Source: Bacteriovoracaceae bacterium
GTDB taxonomy: Bacteria > Bdellovibrionota > Bacteriovoracia > Bacteriovoracales > Bacteriovoracaceae
Direction of reading: 5' to 3'
Length of the DNA: 11,309 nt
Assembly: GCA_041586955.1 (NCBI GenBank)
Contig: JBFGZE010000097.1
Coordinates: 1-11,309 of the forward strand
Within the stretch, counting starts at the first letter, position 1. The number at the start of each line of letters is the position of its first letter. This document shows positions 1 through 10,502 of the stretch, piece by piece. The position numbers and the translations under genes were made by a program. The notes below the pieces were generated by a model. The model was not told the DNA's origin and did not search any database. It saw only the letters and a program-made list of their open reading frames with translations.

Positions 1-409
1 CAATGCCGCCACGAGGAGTAAATTCCCCAATAACTTCAATGTATTTTGGTTTAATTAATGCTGCCAAGTCGTCACAAATTTTTTGCACACAATCTTCGTG
101 GAAGTCTCCATGGTTACGAAAACTAAATAGATATAATTTCAAGGACTTACTTTCGACCATCTTTTTGTCGGCCACATAATTGATAAAAATACGGGCAAAG
201 TCTGGTTGATTGGTTTTAGGGCATAAAGACGTGAATTCAGTACAAACAAAAGTCGTCCAGGCCTCACTGCCCGGGTTTTTATTGGGGAAGGCCTCAAGGA
301 CGTAGGGGGCATAGGTGGTCGGGTAGTCGGTATTGGCCTGGCCGAGAGTAAAGTCTTTTAGTTCTTTTGCGTTGCGCCCAGCTTTTTTCTTGATAATCTT
401 TTTTGCCAT
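1..409 (-). CDS. queF: NADPH-dependent 7-cyano-7-deazaguanine (preQ0) reductase QueF, unimodular type; 3' end runs off the window
   Basis: Absent from the ORF track. Manual translation from ATG at 409-407: [23 protein letters not shown]...[21 protein letters not shown]...[24 protein letters not shown]...GEFTPRGGI. It has the catalytic Cys (CPxTxQPDFA), the QueF motif [12 protein letters not shown] and PRGGI. An AAGGA SD-like sequence lies upstream on the minus strand. Confidence 0.96.
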
Positions 410-486
410 GAGATTTCGGTCCTTTTCATTGCCTTTCTACTAAATTTAGGTCAAATTCCATTATAGAATAATGATGGATTTTTAAC

Positions 487-2892
487 ATGGTGCAATCGAA
501 AAAGCAAAAGTCGCCGATGGTGATATTGGTGCAATTGGGGTCTCCGGCGTCGCCGGGATTGAAAGACGTCCGCAAATTCCTCAAGGAGTTTTTAGGGGAT
601 CCACGAGTGGTGGATATCAATCCTTTTTTGTGGAAAATTATTCTTAATCTATTTGTCCTGCCATTTCGGCCTGCAAAGTCTGCGCGCCTTTACCGTCGTA
701 TCTGGAATGAGGAAAAACAAGAATTCCCTTTGATTCGCTATACTGAGGATTTTGCCCAAAAGGTAGGTGAGCAATTAAAAGATCAGGGGATTCTGGTGCG
801 CCATGCCTATCTCCTGGCCGAACCGCGCTTTGCTGCTATTTGGGATGAATATGAAAAAGACCCAGGAGCTGTGAGCGAGTTTATTATCGTGCCTCTTTTC
901 CCTCAATTTTCAGAGTCTACCACTATGAGTGTGATTGATATTTGGAATAAAGAATTGCATCAACGTGCTATTTCGCCCAGTTATCGTTTTCTTAATTGCT
1001 TTCACACCTCAAAGGCCTTTATTGATAATTCCGTTCTTAGAATTAATGCTAGTTTAGCACAATTAACAAAAGAGAAAGGGAAGCTTGATGCTCTTGTTAT
1101 TTCCTTTCATGGTATCCCCAAGAGGCGAGTGCTTTATAAAGGGGATTTTTACTTCGATCATTGCTTTGAAACCTTTCAACTACTTAAAGAACGGATTGAA
1201 GGTATTGATAGCGATCGCATTCATATGACCTTTCAATCGAGGTTTGGGTCAGAGGAGTGGCTGACCCCTTATACCGAAAATTATTGTCAAAACTTAGTTG
1301 CCGAGGGGCATTCAAAAATGGCGGTTTATTGCCCCGCTTTTGTTGCTGATTGTTTAGAGACAATCGATGAGATTGGCACGGAGTTAAAAGAAGATATTGA
1401 GTCTCTCGGTGGAGAGGTTTATCCCATACCCTGTCTCAATGATGATGATCGCTGGGCACAAGACTTTGCCACATTCCTCCAAGCGGAGGTTAATGGCACT
1501 AACTTAGAGCGGGAGCAACTGGCCTATGAGTTCAGACCCGACCAATATGATAAAAAACCGGAGATCGTTATGCAGTCACCCCCTCTCAGTGCTCCCGCTA
1601 AGAAGAGCTTAAAACTTATTTTCCTGACACTTTTTCTCGATTTGGTGGGATTTAGTATTATCTTTCCCCTTTTTCCAGAACTGGCGAAACATTATTTAGA
1701 GGTGGATGCTGATAATTATTGGTTACGTATGATCTTTGATGGCATAGGCAATTGGGCATCAGTAACAGGTGGTGATCTAACGGGAATTGTCCTCTTTGGA
1801 GGAGCTCTTGGCGCTCTATATTCATTTCTCCAATTTCTGGCAGCACCCATTTGGGGTGGCCTTTCCGATCGTATTGGTCGGCGTCCGATTCTTCTTATGT
1901 CAGTCGGTTGTTTGGCCTTGAGTTATCTTCTATGGTTTTTTTCGGGCTCCTTTACTCTATTAATATTGGCGCGTTTTATCGGCGGTATTATGGGAGGGAA
2001 TATTTCTGCGGCGACGGCGGTTGTTGCGGATGTCACCACCAAAGAGAATCGTTCTAAAGGAATGGCCTTCGTCGGTATCGCTTTTGCGATGGGCTTTATT
2101 TTTGGCCCCGCTCTCGGTGGAATTTTCTCAATGATTGATTTAACAAAGCTATATCCCTCCTTGGTTAGCTACGGGGTGAATCCTTTTTCTATGCCAGCGT
2201 TAGTTGCTTTTATTCTCTCCGTTGTGAATTTTATCAATCTCTATCGTAGCTTTGACGAAACATTGCCGGCCGAAAAAAGAGGCCTTCATAAGAGCGACCG
2301 TTCAGTAAACCCTATTGTTCTCTTTAAGCCCCTGCCATATGCTGGAGTGAACCTGACCAATTTTGGTCATTTCCTCTTTTTGATGGCCTTTAGTGGTATG
2401 GAGTTTACTCTCACTTTCTTGGCCTTTGAGCGCCTGGGCTATCGAGCTATGGATAATGCCTATATGTTTATATTTATCGGCCTTATCATCGCCTTGGTTC
2501 AAGGCGGCCATGTTCGCCGCAAGGCCCATCAAGTAGGCGAGAAGAAAATGGTATTGCAGGGATTGGCCTGTATCATTCCAGGCCTTATTTTAATTGCCTA
2601 CGCCCAGGTAACATGGGTGCTCTACGCTGGTTTATTCTTTTTAGCAGTGGGATCGGCGATGGCAATCCCTTGTTTAACCTCATTGGTATCACTCTATACC
2701 CCCTCGCAATATCAAGGTCGCAGTGTCGGGATTTTTCGCTCTCTTGGTGCCTTGGCGCGGGTTCTAGGTCCGGTTTTGGCGAGTATTATTTATTGGAAGT
2801 ATGGGAGCCAATATCCATATTTAATCGGCTCTTTTTTCCTCTTTCTTCCTATTCTTATGCTGAGCCGCTTGCCTAAGCCTGCTTTAAAATAG
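487..2892 (+). CDS. hemH: Fusion protein: N-terminal ferrochelatase (about aa 1-335) plus C-terminal MFS transporter of the DHA1/TetA/MFSD10-like type (about aa 372-801)
   Basis: Ferrochelatase motifs: LGSP, FLxEFLGDPRVVD, PLFPQFSESTT, SFHGIP (catalytic His), FQSRFG-EEWL-PYT, FVADCLETIDEI, IPCLND. MFS motifs: TM1 Asp (FLDLVG), motif A GGLSDRIGRRP, ARFIGG, antiporter motif C GFIFGPALGG, and about 12 hydrophobic segments. No in-frame stop between the domains. Confidence 0.93.
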   Translation: MVQSKKQKSPMVILVQLGSPASPGLKDVRKFLKEFLGDPRVVDINPFLWKIILNLFVLPFRPAKSARLYRRIWNEEKQEFPLIRYTEDFAQKVGEQLKDQGILVRHAYLLAEPRFAAIWDEYEKDPGAVSEFIIVPLFPQFSESTTMSVIDIWNKELHQRAISPSYRFLNCFHTSKAFIDNSVLRINASLAQLTKEKGKLDALVISFHGIPKRRVLYKGDFYFDHCFETFQLLKERIEGIDSDRIHMTFQSRFGSEEWLTPYTENYCQNLVAEGHSKMAVYCPAFVADCLETIDEIGTELKEDIESLGGEVYPIPCLNDDDRWAQDFATFLQAEVNGTNLEREQLAYEFRPDQYDKKPEIVMQSPPLSAPAKKSLKLIFLTLFLDLVGFSIIFPLFPELAKHYLEVDADNYWLRMIFDGIGNWASVTGGDLTGIVLFGGALGALYSFLQFLAAPIWGGLSDRIGRRPILLMSVGCLALSYLLWFFSGSFTLLILARFIGGIMGGNISAATAVVADVTTKENRSKGMAFVGIAFAMGFIFGPALGGIFSMIDLTKLYPSLVSYGVNPFSMPALVAFILSVVNFINLYRSFDETLPAEKRGLHKSDRSVNPIVLFKPLPYAGVNLTNFGHFLFLMAFSGMEFTLTFLAFERLGYRAMDNAYMFIFIGLIIALVQGGHVRRKAHQVGEKKMVLQGLACIIPGLILIAYAQVTWVLYAGLFFLAVGSAMAIPCLTSLVSLYTPSQYQGRSVGIFRSLGALARVLGPVLASIIYWKYGSQYPYLIGSFFLFLPILMLSRLPKPALK

Positions 2893-3730
2893 GTAGTAAA
2901 AAGGTTTCCACAATATAATGGGCCGTCGATTGATGATAACTTTCATCAATCGAACGCAGTCCAGGGCAATTATTTATTTCCAAAAAAACTGGCCCTTTGT
3001 GAGTATTTAAAAAATCAATAGCATAAATGCCAGGGGCCAAATATTGGCGAAAAAAGTTGTGCATAGGCCTAAGTGTGCTGGGAACTTCCTTTTCGGGGAG
3101 TGCCTCGACCGTGGCGCCTTGGGTGAGGTTGTGGCGCCAGTCGTTGGGGTTATTTTTATAAAGCCACCAATGATGGCCACGACTGGGGTGGTTAATAAGA
3201 AATAGACGAAATTCACCTTTGTTGGGGATAAAGGGTTGGTAGATGTAGCGTTGATCTTTACGCCTAAGTGCCTCTTTTTGCCAAATCACGAATTCTTCTG
3301 GGTTTAAGCGTTCGATGCCGCGTCCGCCAGAGCTGCGCTGGGGCTTGATGACCCAAGAGTCGCTTTTCAAGGGATAATCTTTATTGGTAAACGGGCCACG
3401 CCATGAAAAGCTGGGAATTCCTGGGATGGGAATATCATGCATTAATGGAATTTGCGCCAATTTATCACGGATTAAAAAAGATTGATTAGGTGAATTGATA
3501 ACCGGTACACCGAGCTTTTCTTTTTCGAGACAAAAATAAAGGTCATAATCATCATAGCGATATCCACTGATACGGTTAAATATCAAGGTGGGGGTTGTGA
3601 TTTTATGACACTCACCATTGAATGGATTGGCGAATTGAACTTCTGCGTTAAAGGCCGTGAGCGCCTGCGCCAAGGAACTTGGCGCATAGAGTTGTGGATT
3701 CTCACTTAAGATTATTCCCAATGATTTCAT
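2873..3730 (-). CDS. RimK/LysX-family ATP-grasp ligase (substrate unknown)
   Basis: PVINS..RDKL, WVIKPQRSSGGRGI, YQPFIP, EFRLFLI, DWRHNLTQGA, AIDFL and VFLEINNCPG follow the RimK-type ATP-grasp motif order. Overlaps the 3' end of hemH-MFS by 20 bp, convergently. Confidence 0.85.
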   Translation of the reverse strand: MKSLGIILSENPQLYAPSSLAQALTAFNAEVQFANPFNGECHKITTPTLIFNRISGYRYDDYDLYFCLEKEKLGVPVINSPNQSFLIRDKLAQIPLMHDIPIPGIPSFSWRGPFTNKDYPLKSDSWVIKPQRSSGGRGIERLNPEEFVIWQKEALRRKDQRYIYQPFIPNKGEFRLFLINHPSRGHHWWLYKNNPNDWRHNLTQGATVEALPEKEVPSTLRPMHNFFRQYLAPGIYAIDFLNTHKGPVFLEINNCPGLRSIDESYHQSTAHYIVETFLLPILKQA

Positions 3731-3738
3731 TTTATTAG

Positions 3739-3767
3739 TTCACCGGAGGTATTTTTTTATCTACAAT
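3739..3767 (+). promoter_or_regulatory. Candidate sigma70 promoter for the M14 peptidase gene
   Basis: TTCACC (3739-3744), 17 bp spacer, TACAAT (3762-3767). Its position favours the ATG at 3793 over the one at 3775. Confidence 0.5.
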
Positions 3768-3792
3768 ATGCCTCATGATATTAATTGAGAAG

Positions 3793-4821
3793 ATGAAAAT
3801 TGGTTTTTTCCTCATTTTAGGGGTTGTTTTTATAAGCTGTACGCAGGTTGAAAAACAAAATCTCAAAAATACGAGAAATGGACAAGCGCAGCTCGTGCAA
3901 AAGGTTAGGCCTAATTGGTTTTCCTCGCTTACTCCGATGACTGAGAAGGGTCGTGATAAGCTTTGCCAAAAAGTGAAAAAGAAATGGGTCACTTATCATT
4001 GGGGTAAATCTTATTGTGATAAAGTCAATTGGATGCAAATGGGGGAGTCTCATTTAAAAACGCCACTGGGTTTTGTGGTTTATGGTAATCCCCAAATTGA
4101 TTTAAAAAAGGCCGATACCACTTTGATTTTTTGCGGGGTTCACGGAGATGAAATCACCCCGGTCAAGTTTTGTTTCGATGTGATGAACTATTTAGAAAAC
4201 CTGGGGATGAACGACGAACATAATCATTTTAAAGACCATCTGGTTATTGTCGCTCCTATCGCTAATCCGGACTCCTTCTTTAAAAAATATCCATCTCGTA
4301 CCAATCATAAAGGCATTGATATTAATCGGAATTTACCAACTAAGGATTTTTCCAGTGATGCCATTCGACTATGGAAGTCTCGCTATCGTAAGGACGGCCG
4401 GCGCTTTCCTGGAGAAACGGCAGGCAGTGAGCCTGAAACTCAATTTCAATTAAAATTAATGGAGACCTTTGGCCCAGAAAAAATCATTTCAGTCCATTCT
4501 CCATTGACCATGTTAGATTACGATGGGCCAATGGGCCACTTTGAAGGCGGAGAGATTGGAACCAAGGCCAATCAATTATTGATTCAGATGGCCGAATCCG
4601 CCCGAGGTTACCGCATTAAGAATTATCCGTTTTTTCCAGGTAGCCTTGGCAATTATGCAGGTAATGAGCGCAATATTCCCACCTATACTCTGGAATTGCC
4701 ATCAAGTGATAATCGCAAATCTAAGCAGTATTGGAAATTATTTAAGTCCTCCATTCACTCGGCCATTTTTCATAAAATGAAAAGACCTGTTGCCTCGCTT
4801 AAGACAGAAACCGTGAATTGA
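3793..4821 (+). CDS. M14-family zinc carboxypeptidase/amidase, MpaA-like, predicted lipoprotein
   Basis: Zn-binding GVHGDE, NPD, DINRN, SEPET, ISVHSP, PGSLGNY and TLELP (catalytic Glu). N-terminus MKIGFFLILGVVFIS-C is a signal peptide II with a lipobox. Preferred start is ATG 3793, after GAGAAG; the ORF track starts at 3775. Confidence 0.85.
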   Translation: MKIGFFLILGVVFISCTQVEKQNLKNTRNGQAQLVQKVRPNWFSSLTPMTEKGRDKLCQKVKKKWVTYHWGKSYCDKVNWMQMGESHLKTPLGFVVYGNPQIDLKKADTTLIFCGVHGDEITPVKFCFDVMNYLENLGMNDEHNHFKDHLVIVAPIANPDSFFKKYPSRTNHKGIDINRNLPTKDFSSDAIRLWKSRYRKDGRRFPGETAGSEPETQFQLKLMETFGPEKIISVHSPLTMLDYDGPMGHFEGGEIGTKANQLLIQMAESARGYRIKNYPFFPGSLGNYAGNERNIPTYTLELPSSDNRKSKQYWKLFKSSIHSAIFHKMKRPVASLKTETVN

Positions 4822-4951: not shown

Positions 4952-6889
4952 ATGTTAGCGAGCTTTTCAGAATTCAAATTTTACCAATCCTTTCGTATTC
5001 CGGTCGAGAAGGCCGATAACCTTAGGTTTTTGGCCGAAAGGGATGATGAGTTTGGTAAACCTGTTTATATTGACGATGCCCGCTTAGTCGATATTTCTAT
5101 CACGGGGCTAGGCTTTGCCACGAAAGACCGGATCTCTGTAGGTGATGAAATTACCGTTTCCCTGCAATTTAAAAAGCAACATTTAGACCTGACAGGGAAA
5201 GTTGTCCGCGCCTTTTATAATAGTATAGAAGACGAAGAGCTGATTTATGGAATCGAGATTGATGAGGAAAGTGCCATTAATAAATTTCTGGAAACTTTTA
5301 TATTAAGCTTTTCAACAGATCGTCTTAAAGAATGTCTTATCGATTCAGCATTAAAAGAGCGTTATACCAAGGCCTCTGATGGTTTTGAAATGTTCTCTTT
5401 ATTATTGAGCCTTTTTAAAGATATCACCCATTTTGGTGATAAAGAGGGCTTCCTTGATAGTATGCTAGAGGAAGTTGTTCGTGTGATAAATGCACAAAGG
5501 GCATCTATTTTTCTTATTAATCCCGAAACGAATGAATTAGAGGCGGTCAATGCCATAGGTATTGAAAAGGGTAAATTAAAGTTTGATTATCGTATGGGGA
5601 TTGCCGGTTCTGTTTTCACTACAGGAGTGGCGCTTAATATTGATATTCATACCGATAGTAGTCGCTTTAATGAATCATTTGATAAAATATTTAATTTTGA
5701 GACCCGCTCGATTATTTGTCATCCAATTCATAATAGAGAAGATAAAATTATTGGCGTCATTGAGGTGATCAATAAGAGAAATCAAGATCGCTTTACCGTA
5801 GAAGATGAAAAAACGATGAAGGTCTTGGCCCTCGTCTTCAGTTCAGTCTTTCATAGTTTTAACCCCATTTCTGAATCAAGTCAGATTAGACGGTTTTCAA
5901 CGCCATTTGACCGAAAGTTTGCTATGGTCGGTCGCTCCACTCATATTTCTTCTTTACGGGGCGCGATTATTAAAATGAAAGATATTGAATGCCCTGTTCT
6001 TATTCAAGGTGAGACTGGTACTGGTAAATCTCTATTTGCCCGCATTCTTCATCATGAAGGGCAACGGGGTTTAAAAAGCTTTGAAACGATTGATTGTCGA
6101 GAAAAAGATATTGAAATTCTTGAGCAGCAATTATTTAGTACCGATGAAAATATCTGTAAATTTGCCAAATGCCGAGGTGGTACTTTATTTCTCAAAAATA
6201 TTTGTTCATTACCTATAAAGGTACAAAGAAAATTATTAAATGTGATTTCAGAAAGAGGTGTGCCAAATGGTAAAATCTCGTTTGATTCTCGTATCATTGT
6301 ATCTTCGGGGAAAGATTTAGCAGAAATGGTAGAAGAGGGGTCTTTTGATCGCGAATTATTTAATGTTGTCTCTAAGGCCTTCATCTATATTGAGCCTTTA
6401 AGAAGACGCCAAGATGATATTGATTTATTAGTAGATTATTTTTTAAAGTTGGAATGTAAAAAACAAGGGCTACTTCTTAAAAATTATTCTCCCCGTGCTT
6501 TAGATAAAATGAAAGATTACGATTGGCCCGGAAATATCAATGAATTGCGTATTTGTGTCGAGCGTTCAGTACTATATAATCCAAAGGCGCATATTATTAC
6601 TGATATAGACTTTGATTCGGCGGCGGCGCTCATTGATATTAGCGCCAAAAAAAGAATGTTTGGTGATTTGCCCCATGTTAGTGACTTTCATATTTCACTT
6701 AAAGACCGTCTCGCGATCGTTGAACGTGAAATGATTCTTGCGGAAATTAAACGCAATAATGGCAATAAATCAAAAGCGGCAAAGGAAATGGGTATTTCTC
6801 GCGAGGCGTTGCGGAAAAAGCTCTTGATTAGTCAGGATGTTCTTGAGGTTATTGATGGTGGCGCTATAGATAAAAAGAAGGCCGCTTAA
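4952..6889 (+). CDS. PilZ-GAF-AAA+(sigma54-interaction family, degenerate)-Fis-type HTH transcriptional regulator
   Basis: PilZ-like N-terminus (RIPV...LVDISITGLGF...GKVVR...YGIEI). GAF domain (RASIFL, GIAGSVFTTG, TRSIICHPI, IIGVIEVINK..FTVEDE). Walker A GETGTGKS, PLRRRQDDI, YDWPGNINEL. HTH GNKSKAAKEMGISREALRKKL. Confidence 0.9.
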   Translation: MLASFSEFKFYQSFRIPVEKADNLRFLAERDDEFGKPVYIDDARLVDISITGLGFATKDRISVGDEITVSLQFKKQHLDLTGKVVRAFYNSIEDEELIYGIEIDEESAINKFLETFILSFSTDRLKECLIDSALKERYTKASDGFEMFSLLLSLFKDITHFGDKEGFLDSMLEEVVRVINAQRASIFLINPETNELEAVNAIGIEKGKLKFDYRMGIAGSVFTTGVALNIDIHTDSSRFNESFDKIFNFETRSIICHPIHNREDKIIGVIEVINKRNQDRFTVEDEKTMKVLALVFSSVFHSFNPISESSQIRRFSTPFDRKFAMVGRSTHISSLRGAIIKMKDIECPVLIQGETGTGKSLFARILHHEGQRGLKSFETIDCREKDIEILEQQLFSTDENICKFAKCRGGTLFLKNICSLPIKVQRKLLNVISERGVPNGKISFDSRIIVSSGKDLAEMVEEGSFDRELFNVVSKAFIYIEPLRRRQDDIDLLVDYFLKLECKKQGLLLKNYSPRALDKMKDYDWPGNINELRICVERSVLYNPKAHIITDIDFDSAAALIDISAKKRMFGDLPHVSDFHISLKDRLAIVEREMILAEIKRNNGNKSKAAKEMGISREALRKKLLISQDVLEVIDGGAIDKKKAA

Positions 6890-7408: not shown

Positions 7409-8221
7409 ATGAATAGTTTGGCCATATTAATTGAGCAAATGTCACTCAAGGACGCCCTTGATATCGCAATTGTTGCGCTGTTGATTTATCAAGGTCTTTT
7501 AATTATTCGCGGCACGCGAGCTGTCCATATGCTCTTAGGCCTGCTTGCTCTATTAGGACTTTTTTGGGTGGGGCGATACTTTCAGCTTTATAGTCTTAAT
7601 TGGATCCTCGATCATTTCTTTGATTATTTTTTTATTTTCGCGATTATTCTTTTTCAAGACCAATTTCGCAGCGCCTTGGCCAGCTTTGGTGCAGGTCGCC
7701 GCTGGCGTCTGTTTAATCGCAAAAATGGTATAGATTTGGATATCCCAGAGATTGTTGAGGCCTGCGAAATTCTCTCTGAGAATAAAATAGGTGCCCTTAT
7801 TGTCATCGAAAGAGGAGAAGGTCTTCTCAATTATATTGGTACCGGAACGACTTTAGATTGTCGGGTGCATAGTGATCTGATCTTCTCTATTTTTCAGGCC
7901 GCTTCACCTCTCCACGATGGTGCAATTATTTTATCTCAAGGTCGCCTGCGAGCAGCGGGTTGTTTTTTACCCTTATCTAAAAATCATGATATCCATCGCC
8001 ATATGGGAACTCGACATCGAGCGGCACTAGGTATTTCAGAAAACTCAGATGCCGTCGCTGTGACAGTCAGTGAAGAAACTGGAAAAATGCATATTGCGAT
8101 TGCTGGAAAATTTTTTGTTTGTAGTAATGGGCAAAATCTGGGGCATTATTTAGAGCATCTTTGTGGTGGCCAGCATGGCGGTTCTTTAGGAATGACTTTG
8201 GAAGAAGGTGAGAGATCGTGA
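7409..8221 (+). CDS. cdaA: Membrane-bound diadenylate cyclase CdaA/DacA (c-di-AMP synthase)
   Basis: Three N-terminal hydrophobic segments (LDIAIV..., IRGTRA, ILFQDQFRSAL), then IGALIVIER, SPLHDGAII, GCFLPLS, GTRHRAALGISE and VSEETG. Catalytic DGA and RHR motifs are intact. Confidence 0.96.
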   Translation: MNSLAILIEQMSLKDALDIAIVALLIYQGLLIIRGTRAVHMLLGLLALLGLFWVGRYFQLYSLNWILDHFFDYFFIFAIILFQDQFRSALASFGAGRRWRLFNRKNGIDLDIPEIVEACEILSENKIGALIVIERGEGLLNYIGTGTTLDCRVHSDLIFSIFQAASPLHDGAIILSQGRLRAAGCFLPLSKNHDIHRHMGTRHRAALGISENSDAVAVTVSEETGKMHIAIAGKFFVCSNGQNLGHYLEHLCGGQHGGSLGMTLEEGERS

Positions 8222-9126
8222 AAAAAGTTGATGTCAATCGCCAATTATTGAAAGTGATGGCCTTGTTGATTTCAACGACATTGTGGTTTTATGTCCTTAG
8301 TGGTGAACCCATTGAAAAGAATATATCTCTTTCCTTAACCTATATTAACCCCACCGGATTAGCGGTTTCAAAACCTGGACCTGAAAATTTAAAAATAAAA
8401 TTATCTGGGCCACGCGTTCTTTTATCTAATTTTCAAAAAAGGCCACCCAAGGTCTATGTTGATTTATCAAAATCTAGTAAACGTCGGAAAACTATTAGAA
8501 TTAAAACGAATGAATTATCAATTCCACTGCCTTTTGGGGTCGAAATTATGGATATTAACCCCTTGGACTTTAAGGTGCAATTAGAGCGTAAAATAAAAAA
8601 ACGAGTCCCCATGAAATTGGTTTTATTGGGGGAGTTGGATAAAGATCTCAAGCTTGTTACCAAAAAAATGGAACCTGAGGAAGTGATGATCTCAGGCCCT
8701 CATAGTATCATTAAAACGATTGCTCAATTAAAAACTCACCCTATTGATTTAGGCCAGCTACAAGGAAGCGGTGAGCGAGAGGTATTAATTGATAACCTTG
8801 ATCCACGGGTCAATCTTGATTTTGAGGGGACGCTTAAATTGCATTATGATATTCGGCCAAATAAGGCAAATTTGACTTTGAAAAAAATAAAAATTAGGTT
8901 TTTATCCTCAAAAGGGAAAATACATAGTAAGATGCAGTACGCTTCAATCGACGTCCTGATTCCCAAAGAGATGGAGAGTCGGTTGACAGAAAAAAACATT
9001 AAAGTAATAGCTGAAATACCAGACAAGGCACGGGGCTCCGTTTGGGTCCCATTGAAAGCGGATTTACCAGATGGAGTTCATATGGTGAAGATTAATCCCG
9101 AGCGGATTAACGTGGTGGTACCTTAG
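8218..9126 (+). CDS. cdaR: CdaR/YbbR-family regulator of diadenylate cyclase
   Basis: N-terminal anchor KVMALLISTTLWFYV and repeated beta-rich YbbR-like segments (IKLSGP, PEEVMISGP, INPERINV). GTGA start/stop overlap with cdaA, and canonical position between cdaA and glmM. Confidence 0.9.
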   Translation: MKKVDVNRQLLKVMALLISTTLWFYVLSGEPIEKNISLSLTYINPTGLAVSKPGPENLKIKLSGPRVLLSNFQKRPPKVYVDLSKSSKRRKTIRIKTNELSIPLPFGVEIMDINPLDFKVQLERKIKKRVPMKLVLLGELDKDLKLVTKKMEPEEVMISGPHSIIKTIAQLKTHPIDLGQLQGSGEREVLIDNLDPRVNLDFEGTLKLHYDIRPNKANLTLKKIKIRFLSSKGKIHSKMQYASIDVLIPKEMESRLTEKNIKVIAEIPDKARGSVWVPLKADLPDGVHMVKINPERINVVVP

Positions 9127-9140
9127 CTTAGGGAATTTTT

Positions 9141-10502
9141 ATGGGTCAAAGAAAATTGTTTGGAACTGATGGGATTAGAGGGAAGGCAAATGTCTATCCT
9201 ATGACTGGTGATGTGGCATTTAATTTAGGGCGCGCTGTGACTCATTATTTTGTCACGCAAAAAAGAAATAAAAAACCATTAATTATATTGGGCAAAGATA
9301 CACGCCTGAGCTGTTATATGCTCGAGCAAGCATTCTCTGCCGGTGTTTGTTCTCAAGGTGGGCAAGTCATTTTAACTGGCCCTTTGCCCACTCCTGGCGT
9401 TGCCTTTGTGACGCGTTCTATGCGCGCAGATGTCGGTGTGATGATATCGGCATCTCATAATGCTTATTTTGATAATGGTATTAAAATTTTCGACTCTAAA
9501 GGTTTTAAATTGCCGGATGAAGTGGAATTGATTCTCGAGGATTATATTCTTAACCCCGAAAAATTGCCAGTTCAAACCAATGGTCATTTGGGGAATGCTA
9601 AGCGCTTAAAGGAAGTTTTTGGTCGCTATTTGGTCCAAACCAAAGCAGCTCTAGGAGCTGATTTTGACTTAGAGGGATTACGGATAGTCCTCGATTGTGC
9701 CAATGGTGCTGCTTATAAAGTTGCGCCGATGATGTTTCGAGAACTAGGGGCCGAAATTTTCCCTATTGGTGTAGAGCCCAATGGTACCAATATTAATATG
9801 GAATGTGGCTCTCTTCACCCTGGACGAGCGCAAGAGATGGTTAAGACTTACCGCGCCGATTTGGGAATATGTCTTGATGGTGATGCTGACCGGCTCATTG
9901 TTTGTGATAGTGACGGCAACTTAATTGACGGTGATTGTGTCATCGGGCTATTTGCCAAATTATTATTGGACCGCGGCGAATTAAGTAAAGGCGACACAAT
10001 TGTGGGCACAATTATGTCTAACTTAGGCCTTGAAAATTATATTCGCAGTTTAGGACTCTCCTTTCACCGCACTAAGGTTGGCGATCGTTATATTATGGAA
10101 TATATGCGTGAGCACAGTAGTATCTTAGGGGGCGAACCCTCCGGCCATGTTATTTTGGCCAATCATTCAACCACTGGTGATGGCTGTTTGGCCGCCCTTA
10201 AGTTGATTGAATGTTTGAAGTTTTATAATCGCTCCTTGGCCGAGTTAACAAGCGATATTCAGCTTTACCCACAGAAGCTCATTAATGTTCCCGTTAAAGA
10301 GAAACGACCTCTTAAAGAAGTTAAACTAATTCAAGATGAGTTAACACGGTTAGAAAAGACGCTTGATGGGAAAGGGCGTATTGTCCTGCGCTATTCGGGT
10401 ACAGAGTCATTGATTAGAGTGATGGTTGAAGCGAAGAGTGATCAATTAGTAGAAGAAATAATTGGACCTTTTGTCAAACTTGTAAAAAAGGCCTTGAGTT
10501 AA
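9141..10502 (+). CDS. glmM: Phosphoglucosamine mutase
   Basis: KLFGTDGIRG, GKDTRLS, PTPGVA, MISASHN (phosphoserine), DNGIKIF, DGDADR, VGDRY, GGEPSGH, RYSGTE..IRVMVE. Confidence 0.97.
   Translation: MGQRKLFGTDGIRGKANVYPMTGDVAFNLGRAVTHYFVTQKRNKKPLIILGKDTRLSCYMLEQAFSAGVCSQGGQVILTGPLPTPGVAFVTRSMRADVGVMISASHNAYFDNGIKIFDSKGFKLPDEVELILEDYILNPEKLPVQTNGHLGNAKRLKEVFGRYLVQTKAALGADFDLEGLRIVLDCANGAAYKVAPMMFRELGAEIFPIGVEPNGTNINMECGSLHPGRAQEMVKTYRADLGICLDGDADRLIVCDSDGNLIDGDCVIGLFAKLLLDRGELSKGDTIVGTIMSNLGLENYIRSLGLSFHRTKVGDRYIMEYMREHSSILGGEPSGHVILANHSTTGDGCLAALKLIECLKFYNRSLAELTSDIQLYPQKLINVPVKEKRPLKEVKLIQDELTRLEKTLDGKGRIVLRYSGTESLIRVMVEAKSDQLVEEIIGPFVKLVKKALS

Follow-up and report, generated by a model that had tools for sequence, protein, structure and literature searches.

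Ferrochelatases (HemH) are, to our knowledge, soluble or peripheral enzymes. A single CAB helix is added in those of cyanobacteria and plants, and fusions of HemH with ChdC exist in some Actinobacteria. The protein considered here differs from the known enzymes in that its ferrochelatase is covalently joined to a carrier of 12 helices. Its gene occupies positions 487..2892 of the plus strand of an 11,309-nucleotide stretch of DNA (the whole of which we call the window) from a marine predatory bacterium of the Bacteriovoracaceae, contig JBFGZE010000097.1 of assembly GCA_041586955.1. It encodes, in a single frame of 801 aa, a ferrochelatase followed by a carrier of the major facilitator superfamily (MFS). 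Judging from sequence comparisons, this fusion is real and shared by most of the family, and it appears to be uncharacterised so far.

In function, the closest analogy is offered by the heme metabolon of mitochondria. There, ferrochelatase is in physical contact with the inner-membrane transporters mitoferrin, ABCB10 and ABCB7, which are believed to channel substrate or product (PMC9133952). The fusion would be a hard-wired bacterial counterpart of this assembly. However, the partners of the metabolon are non-covalent, belong to other classes (SLC25 and ABC), and one of them delivers iron, whereas the fusion is covalent and involves an MFS carrier, the contact of its two halves being hypothetical. 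A second parallel can be drawn with PefA from Streptococcus agalactiae, an MFS member belonging to the drug:H+ antiporter type implicated, together with PefB, in the efflux of heme and protoporphyrin in this respiring heme auxotroph (PMC2858704). Such an efflux protein in a heme auxotroph resembles the situation, described below, of relatives that carry the carrier alone and have no heme synthesis genes. The likeness drawn here is one of description, and PefA is neither fused to nor encoded beside a ferrochelatase. For the carrier half, the protein to compare with is human MFSD10, or TETRAN, which is listed as an organic-anion carrier under TC 2.A.1.2.73 (PMC5627054) and placed in the drug:H+ antiporter family 1 (PMC8154325). 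The PDB entry 6S4M corresponds to the human protein in an outward-open state, and a review of 2021 listed this structure as unpublished (PMC8154325).

The fusion gene is monocistronic and contains no internal stop. In its product, the Pfam family Ferrochelatase (PF00762) matches residues 12-331 (E 1.4e-81) and MFS_1 (PF07690) residues 378-762 (E 6.3e-51), both profiles scoring above their cut-offs. The sequence-only reading that preceded this analysis had described one open reading frame joining a complete HemH to a full-length MFS protein, and this description holds. It had also stated that no HemH-MFS fusion was characterised, in agreement with our own searches: no paper describing such a fusion was found in the literature searched, which did not extend to subscription journals or InterPro. 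What is new is the architecture of this ferrochelatase and the existence of a bacterial, enzyme-fused homologue of MFSD10; both halves belong to known families.

The same architecture is found well beyond the window. The best 120 matches in a collection of 5.8 billion proteins are 783-824 aa long, show 60-67% identity and all contain both Pfam domains (120/120). Where names are given, they read 'ferrochelatase' of Halobacteriovorax, Bacteriovorax, Bacteriovoracaceae or Oligoflexia. A set of 1.84 billion representative proteins yielded about 10 fused ones, down to 43% identity, and the rest were stand-alone carriers or enzymes, including a close stand-alone carrier (52% identity) labelled Hydrogenedentes. 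Since public records say only 'ferrochelatase' or 'MFS transporter', this architecture is easy to miss. We also scanned 401 genomes of the phylum for hemH. Among the 150 matches listed, frames of at least 736 aa occur only in the family of the window, and those of other families measure 237-411 aa. Within this family, 92 of 100 genomes possess an orthologue of the carrier, which is part of one frame of at least 736 aa in 82 of them, is cut by contig ends in 4 (the truncation was confirmed for 2) and stands alone, with 439-483 aa, in the remaining 6. This contradicts the idea that relatives always encode two separate genes.

One could still wonder whether the single frame is an artefact and really represents two genes, either because a stop or frameshift of the linker was overlooked or because the contig is chimeric. 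We consider this scarcely credible. The same single frame is present in 82 independently assembled genomes and in all of the 120 top database clusters. In addition, contigs assembled from four marine-metagenome runs display zero indels across positions 400-3000; the four runs belong to one study, may include the source sample and do not count as independent support. A single one of these contigs spans 1035-3000 and another covers 1402-1722 without any difference. The variation is mostly synonymous on either side of the junction (12 of 16 variant positions), and 2 of the 4 amino-acid changes affect the linker. In favour of an artefact, an in-frame ATG at 1570 is preceded by GGAG, and one public record annotates the carrier part alone of a near-identical gene. 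This record, a 443-aa 'hypothetical protein' from Halobacteriovorax marinus, shares 442 of its 443 residues with the stretch 375-817 of the fusion encoded by strain SJ, and it begins at the methionine equivalent to Met362 of our protein. It could reflect an annotation split, a frameshift in the record or a real internal start.

This last possibility leads to the junction itself. The linker (1480..1590, plus strand; residues 332-368) is hydrophilic, with 4 Lys or Arg and 7 Asp or Glu, and measures about 37 aa, close to the 35 or so first estimated. No other part of the protein is less conserved, yet the linker is modelled with two short helices, its predicted local distance difference test score (pLDDT, block means) lying between 78 and 92 over residues 331-370. 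At 1560..1572 on the plus strand, just ahead of the first transmembrane helix (TM1), GGAG (1560-1563) is followed by the in-frame ATG of Met362 (1570-1572). This arrangement may be either a relic of the former start of the carrier or a possible internal start. A methionine is present at most 30 aa before TM1 in 18 of the 19 loci analysed, 4 of 23 loci having been left out because the TM1 pattern did not match. GGAG, GAGG or AGGA precedes this junction methionine in 6 of 18 cases, compared with 20 of 321 other internal methionines. The idea of an internal start is thus suggestive at the sequence level, but the position of the motif is inconsistent.

The enzyme half (520..1479, plus strand; residues 12-331) is a ferrochelatase domain, probably of the HemH/PpfC (protoporphyrin) type. 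It scores 274 bits with PF00762 against a cut-off of 27, over profile positions 4-313 of 317, and 209 bits with the NCBIfam hemH model TIGR00109 against a cut-off of 124.6. The earlier reading had noted that the catalytic His and Glu are retained. Indeed, H208 (codon 1108-1110) and E291 (codon 1357-1359) are invariant in 70 of 70 fused orthologues and align, in human ferrochelatase, with the SAHSLP His and the D-x-I-E-T Glu, that is H263 and E343 in the numbering taken from PDB titles. By E value, the human enzyme (7e-12) is nearer in sequence than Bacillus CpfC (5e-8). In the AlphaFold2 model of the fusion protein (pLDDT 88.1), this half adopts the class II chelatase fold, with Foldseek TM-scores of 0.80-0.81 to the human and 0.78-0.80 to the yeast enzyme. 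With the known HemH proteins of Gram-negative bacteria and mitochondria (PF00762, TIGR00109), it has in common the full domain, the catalytic His and Glu, the fold and the position at the end of a HemJ-type pathway. Unlike human ferrochelatase, which has a C-terminal cysteine cluster ([2Fe-2S] site), the fusion protein has no such cluster. Conserved cysteines, C226, C282, C289 and C316, are widespread among the fused orthologues. As a side observation, extra cysteines occur where the enzyme half ends and within the linker, at positions equivalent to 324 and 335, in 46 and 29 of the 70 fused orthologues respectively, these positions being Ala and Val in our protein; a metal or cluster site may thus exist in some relatives.

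The carrier half (1591..2865, plus strand; residues 369-793) is a 12-helix MFS protein of the MFSD10/TETRAN type, which falls into the drug:H+ antiporter-1 family (DHA1). PF07690 matches it over its whole length (profile positions 1-347 of 347) with 174 bits against a cut-off of 33.4, and residues 369-793 of the model form 12 long helices, the central loop measuring 32 aa. Its best solved relative is human MFSD10 (6S4M), with 214 bits and an E value of 2.8e-62. The alignment, from 8-434 of the query to 18-444 of the chain, covers 427 of 441 residues, the long TM1-TM2 loop included. The next solved relatives are far weaker (YajR, 6e-13; NorA, 8e-11). Foldseek superimposes the carrier model on 6S4M with a TM-score of 0.88, an rmsd of 2.9 and 33% identity. 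By alignment and fold, the carrier is therefore best described as an end-to-end homologue of MFSD10/TETRAN, far above other solved MFS proteins. Among named NCBIfam families, the best-scoring one is NF012174, which groups the tetracycline efflux pumps Tet(A), Tet(B) and Tet(C) and has the superfamily branch and the motifs in common with the carrier. It was rejected at 162 bits against a cut-off of 475, the specific tet models being also far below their cut-offs.

Among the residues of the carrier that are invariant in the 70 fused orthologues are D385, G457, D461, G464, R465, R496, G536, G540, P541, G544, E639 and R751. They include much of what defines the drug:H+ antiporter-1 family in the definition used here, namely G-x3-D-R-x-G-R-R in loop 2-3, an Arg in TM4 and G-x3-G-P-x2-G-G in TM5. 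The corresponding sequences of the carrier are GGLSDRIGRRP (457-467), R496 and GFIFGPALGG (536-545). The TM1 Asp and motif C that the earlier reading had pointed out, which we take to be D385 and G536, G540, P541 and G544 respectively, are thus present and invariant. The conserved TM1 Asp, the TM4 Arg and the loop motifs are common to human MFSD10 and the bacterial carrier. On the other hand, only the latter is fused to an enzyme, and the cargo of MFSD10 is listed simply as 'organic anions' (PMC5627054). When the literature was searched for MFSD10 together with heme, neither term stood in the title or abstract of the matches listed.

Over 120 orthologues, the mean identity to our protein amounts to 0.73 for the MFS half, 0.57 for HemH and 0.32 for the linker. 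The carrier half is under strong purifying selection. The earlier reading had envisaged that the MFS half might serve only as a membrane anchor. That the carrier is better conserved than the enzyme argues against a mere anchor and for a working carrier.

The assembly to which the window belongs, as contig 97, comprises 3.46 Mb in 194 contigs and is 88% complete, and in this genome the fusion is the only hemH match; no second hemH was found. The upstream pathway, whose presence was in question, was recovered as hemB, hemJ and a cluster that contains a short hemA-like gene, hemC, hemL, hemE and one hemN-like radical-SAM gene (225 bits, below the cut-off of 325); hemY was not found in this 88%-complete genome. 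The sole hemH and the HemJ pathway would make the fusion the terminal enzyme of a protoporphyrin-dependent pathway in which the preceding step is carried out by a membrane protein. Since this pathway is present, the import of scavenged porphyrin for metallation, another suggestion of the earlier reading, is not required to feed the enzyme. Three further features of the hem cluster, all on the plus strand of contig 21, deserve a mention. The only hemA-like gene (L006:3721-4647) encodes 308 aa scoring 67 bits against a cut-off of 210, with GlutR_N and NAD domains and apparently no C-terminal dimerisation part. The hemC frame (L006:4666-6240) is 524 aa long; it matches porphobilinogen deaminase models over residues 5-231 (Pfam) and 6-279 (TIGR00212), and its last 240 aa or so, without any Pfam or NCBIfam match, might represent a uroporphyrinogen-III synthase that is divergent and joined to HemC. 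Finally, genes for a histidine kinase and an OmpR-type response regulator lie between hemL and hemE (L006:7500-9097) and may regulate heme synthesis.

Evidence that the two genes were paired before they were fused comes from a sister family of the same order. A genome of this family (G252; about 0.9 Mb in 4 contigs, 96% complete) encodes a HemH of 330 aa and an MFS protein of 393 aa as separate genes with a 4-bp overlap, and the best match of this MFS protein is MFSD10 (3e-25). It retains hemB and hemE, in an order which otherwise includes predators with genomes of 3-4 Mb. The pairing of the two genes thus predates the fusion and survives strong genome reduction.

On this basis, our tentative preference goes to a membrane-tethered ferrochelatase coupled to an organic-anion/H+ carrier that would probably handle heme or protoporphyrin. 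The gene product would be one bifunctional inner-membrane protein. The N-termini of MFS carriers are cytoplasmic, and the enzyme half should be cytoplasmic too because it precedes TM1. There it would complete a HemJ-type pathway by inserting Fe2+ into protoporphyrin IX. The tether of about 37 aa would keep the ferrochelatase at the membrane surface, where membrane-bound HemJ would release the hydrophobic protoporphyrin, and it would also set the enzyme beside a carrier that takes an anionic tetrapyrrole through the inner membrane. This cargo would be surplus protoporphyrin or heme, either self-made or released from digested prey. Its movement would most likely be outward, against protons, a direction favoured because the family of the carrier is filed with proton antiporters and because PefA provides a precedent for efflux (PMC2858704). 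Enzyme and carrier would in that case form a joint valve, of a 'make it or dump it' kind, for a toxic pigment. Bacteriovoracaceae, among them Halobacteriovorax, are predators of other bacteria that digest whole prey cells, and a valve for prey-derived pigment is plausible in a predator. Predictions of a complex between residues 1-345 and 366-801 scored 0.00 twice, in runs without controls, and provide no evidence either way on the contact of the halves.

The cargo, its direction and any direct hand-off are inferred, and several observations weigh against this interpretation. The invariant polar residues of the carrier are general to MFSD10, so none of them can be read as specific for heme. Four genomes of the same family (G150, G174, G264 and G339; 96-99% complete) are devoid of hemH, hemE and hemB, and in all four the carrier stands alone at the queF locus, with 49-69% identity by tblastn (51-71% in the survey of carrier orthologues). 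The downstream M14 peptidase gene is also kept in G150 and G339, as is the ATP-grasp gene in G150. A carrier that is kept without heme synthesis must have a job independent of self-made heme. The genus g9 (G066 and G133) also has a stand-alone carrier (68% identity), which in G066 is found at the queF locus while a different hemH (26-39% identical) belongs to a hem cluster elsewhere. Conversely, five genomes of the family contain hemH and no orthologue of the carrier at E 1e-30 or better, one of them (G354) with a stand-alone hemH frame of 332 aa, which indicates that the enzyme does not need the carrier. Beyond the family, the identity of the best carrier homologues drops to 33-40%. The best carrier homologue and hemH are never neighbours in the 17 genomes from outside the order that were cross-checked (17/17); they are located on separate contigs or 240 kb or more from each other. 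Finally, this bacterium probably exports heme for cytochrome c maturation by a separate route, since its genome, 88% complete, contains a ResB-like factor of System II (37.5 bits) for cytochrome c, and a search for CcmE found nothing. We rate such export as an unlikely job for the carrier.

These natural variants can be read in more than one way. All four genomes without hemB, hemE and hemH encode heme-copper oxidases, so that these bacteria look like heme auxotrophs, obliged to obtain their heme from prey. The precedent of PefA means that a carrier kept after the loss of heme synthesis is no contradiction, and that its cargo could still be a tetrapyrrole (PMC2858704). In a tree of 29 carrier domains, the carrier-only proteins of G150 and G066 fall inside a poorly resolved fused clade and the other three are basal. 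Long branches and mostly open forks give no firm order of events in this tree, in particular between loss and never having been fused for the three basal lineages. Altogether, the variants show that the link between the two genes is real and old, and that each half can work without the other. The coupled machine for synthesis and transport proposed at the outset is therefore upheld in part: family-wide retention, the overlapping pair of G252 and the conservation of the carrier support a functional link, but the carrier-only relatives speak against a dedication to newly made heme.

A competing hypothesis is that the cargo is a housekeeping one and has nothing to do with tetrapyrroles, being an organic anion or a drug-like compound, and that a stop-loss fusion was kept as an anchor or for shared expression, without any hand-off. 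Such an origin fits the junction methionine of 18 out of 19 loci and the 4-bp overlap of the pair in the sister family. The carriers that stand alone, at the same locus, in four genomes without hemB, hemE and hemH and in genus g9, the hemH genes without carrier in five family genomes, the lack of adjacency to hemH in the 17 genomes outside the order and the resemblance to a generic member of the MFSD10 family all agree with an unrelated cargo. However, a 12-helix carrier conserved above the level of the enzyme goes far beyond the needs of an anchor, and the linkage of hemH with the carrier persists in a reduced genome of 0.9 Mb as well as in 82 genomes of the family. Moreover, an MFS protein for porphyrin efflux in a heme auxotroph has a precedent (PMC2858704). 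We thus regard an unrelated cargo as rather unlikely, though it deserves serious consideration.

The carrier could also work in the opposite direction and bring prey-derived protoporphyrin, heme or an iron chelate to the tethered ferrochelatase, as substrate for metallation or as first acceptor. The source records name the family Bacteriovoracaceae or Halobacteriovorax, which are predators of other bacteria, and the relatives without heme synthesis and with heme-copper oxidases (4/4) must acquire heme and retain the carrier. The solute carrier PCFT/HCP1, a member of SLC46, is a proton symporter once proposed to be a heme importer, and PCFT is among the structural matches of the fusion model (rank 44). 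A place beside SLC46 has been suggested for the MFSD10 group (PMC5627054), and mitochondrial ferrochelatase is reported to obtain iron directly from mitoferrin (PMC9133952). Against import, MFSD10 is filed under drug:H+ antiporters (PMC8154325) and the genome makes its own protoporphyrin, so that the enzyme needs no import. The conserved TM5 motif G-x3-G-P-x2-G-G is regarded as typical of antiporters and exporters. An importer therefore appears improbable to us, and the tethered ferrochelatase coupled to an outward-moving carrier of heme or protoporphyrin stays our preferred, if tentative, interpretation. One could even go further and consider the fusion as a 'Rosetta stone', according to which the whole MFSD10/TETRAN branch, the human protein included, would consist of heme or protoporphyrin transporters, with a direct hand-off from ferrochelatase. 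We regard this bolder extension as rather unlikely.

The surroundings of the fusion gene were also analysed. It is divergent from queF (preQ1 synthase; 2..409, minus strand), a conserved neighbour that served as a locus marker because it is syntenic in fused and carrier-only relatives. At the other end, it is convergent with a minus-strand gene for a RimK-like ATP-grasp protein, the 3' end of which is overlapped by its final 20 bases. A scan for promoters and terminators gave nothing bearing on the fusion gene above the shuffled expectation. The ATP-grasp ligase gene forms with a plus-strand gene for an M14/MpaA-like carboxypeptidase a divergent pair (2873-4821) that adjoins the fusion gene and recurs, in whole or in part, beside the locus of relatives: G150 and G162 have both genes, G339 has only that of the peptidase and G009, within the stretch examined, only that of the ATP-grasp protein. 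Further downstream, a sigma-54 activator with an unusual front end of PilZ and GAF sensor domains (4952-6889, plus strand) may be a c-di-GMP-responsive enhancer-binding protein. It is followed by an ordinary cdaA - ybbR (cdaR-like) - glmM operon for c-di-AMP synthesis and then by pdxJ (7409-10502, plus strand).

For bacteria as well as for mitochondria, it is an old question by what means ferrochelatase releases heme, how its phototoxic precursor departs, and how both pass through membranes. A conserved fusion of the enzyme with a carrier offers a single expressible protein in which their coupling could be tested directly, and the family provides built-in controls in the form of fused, split-but-adjacent, enzyme-only and carrier-only variants, the last from heme auxotrophs. 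The fusion would also be a first genomic clue to the physiological cargo of the orphan human protein MFSD10. If the 'Rosetta stone' hypothesis were true, these predatory bacteria would possess a hard-wired heme metabolon of their own.

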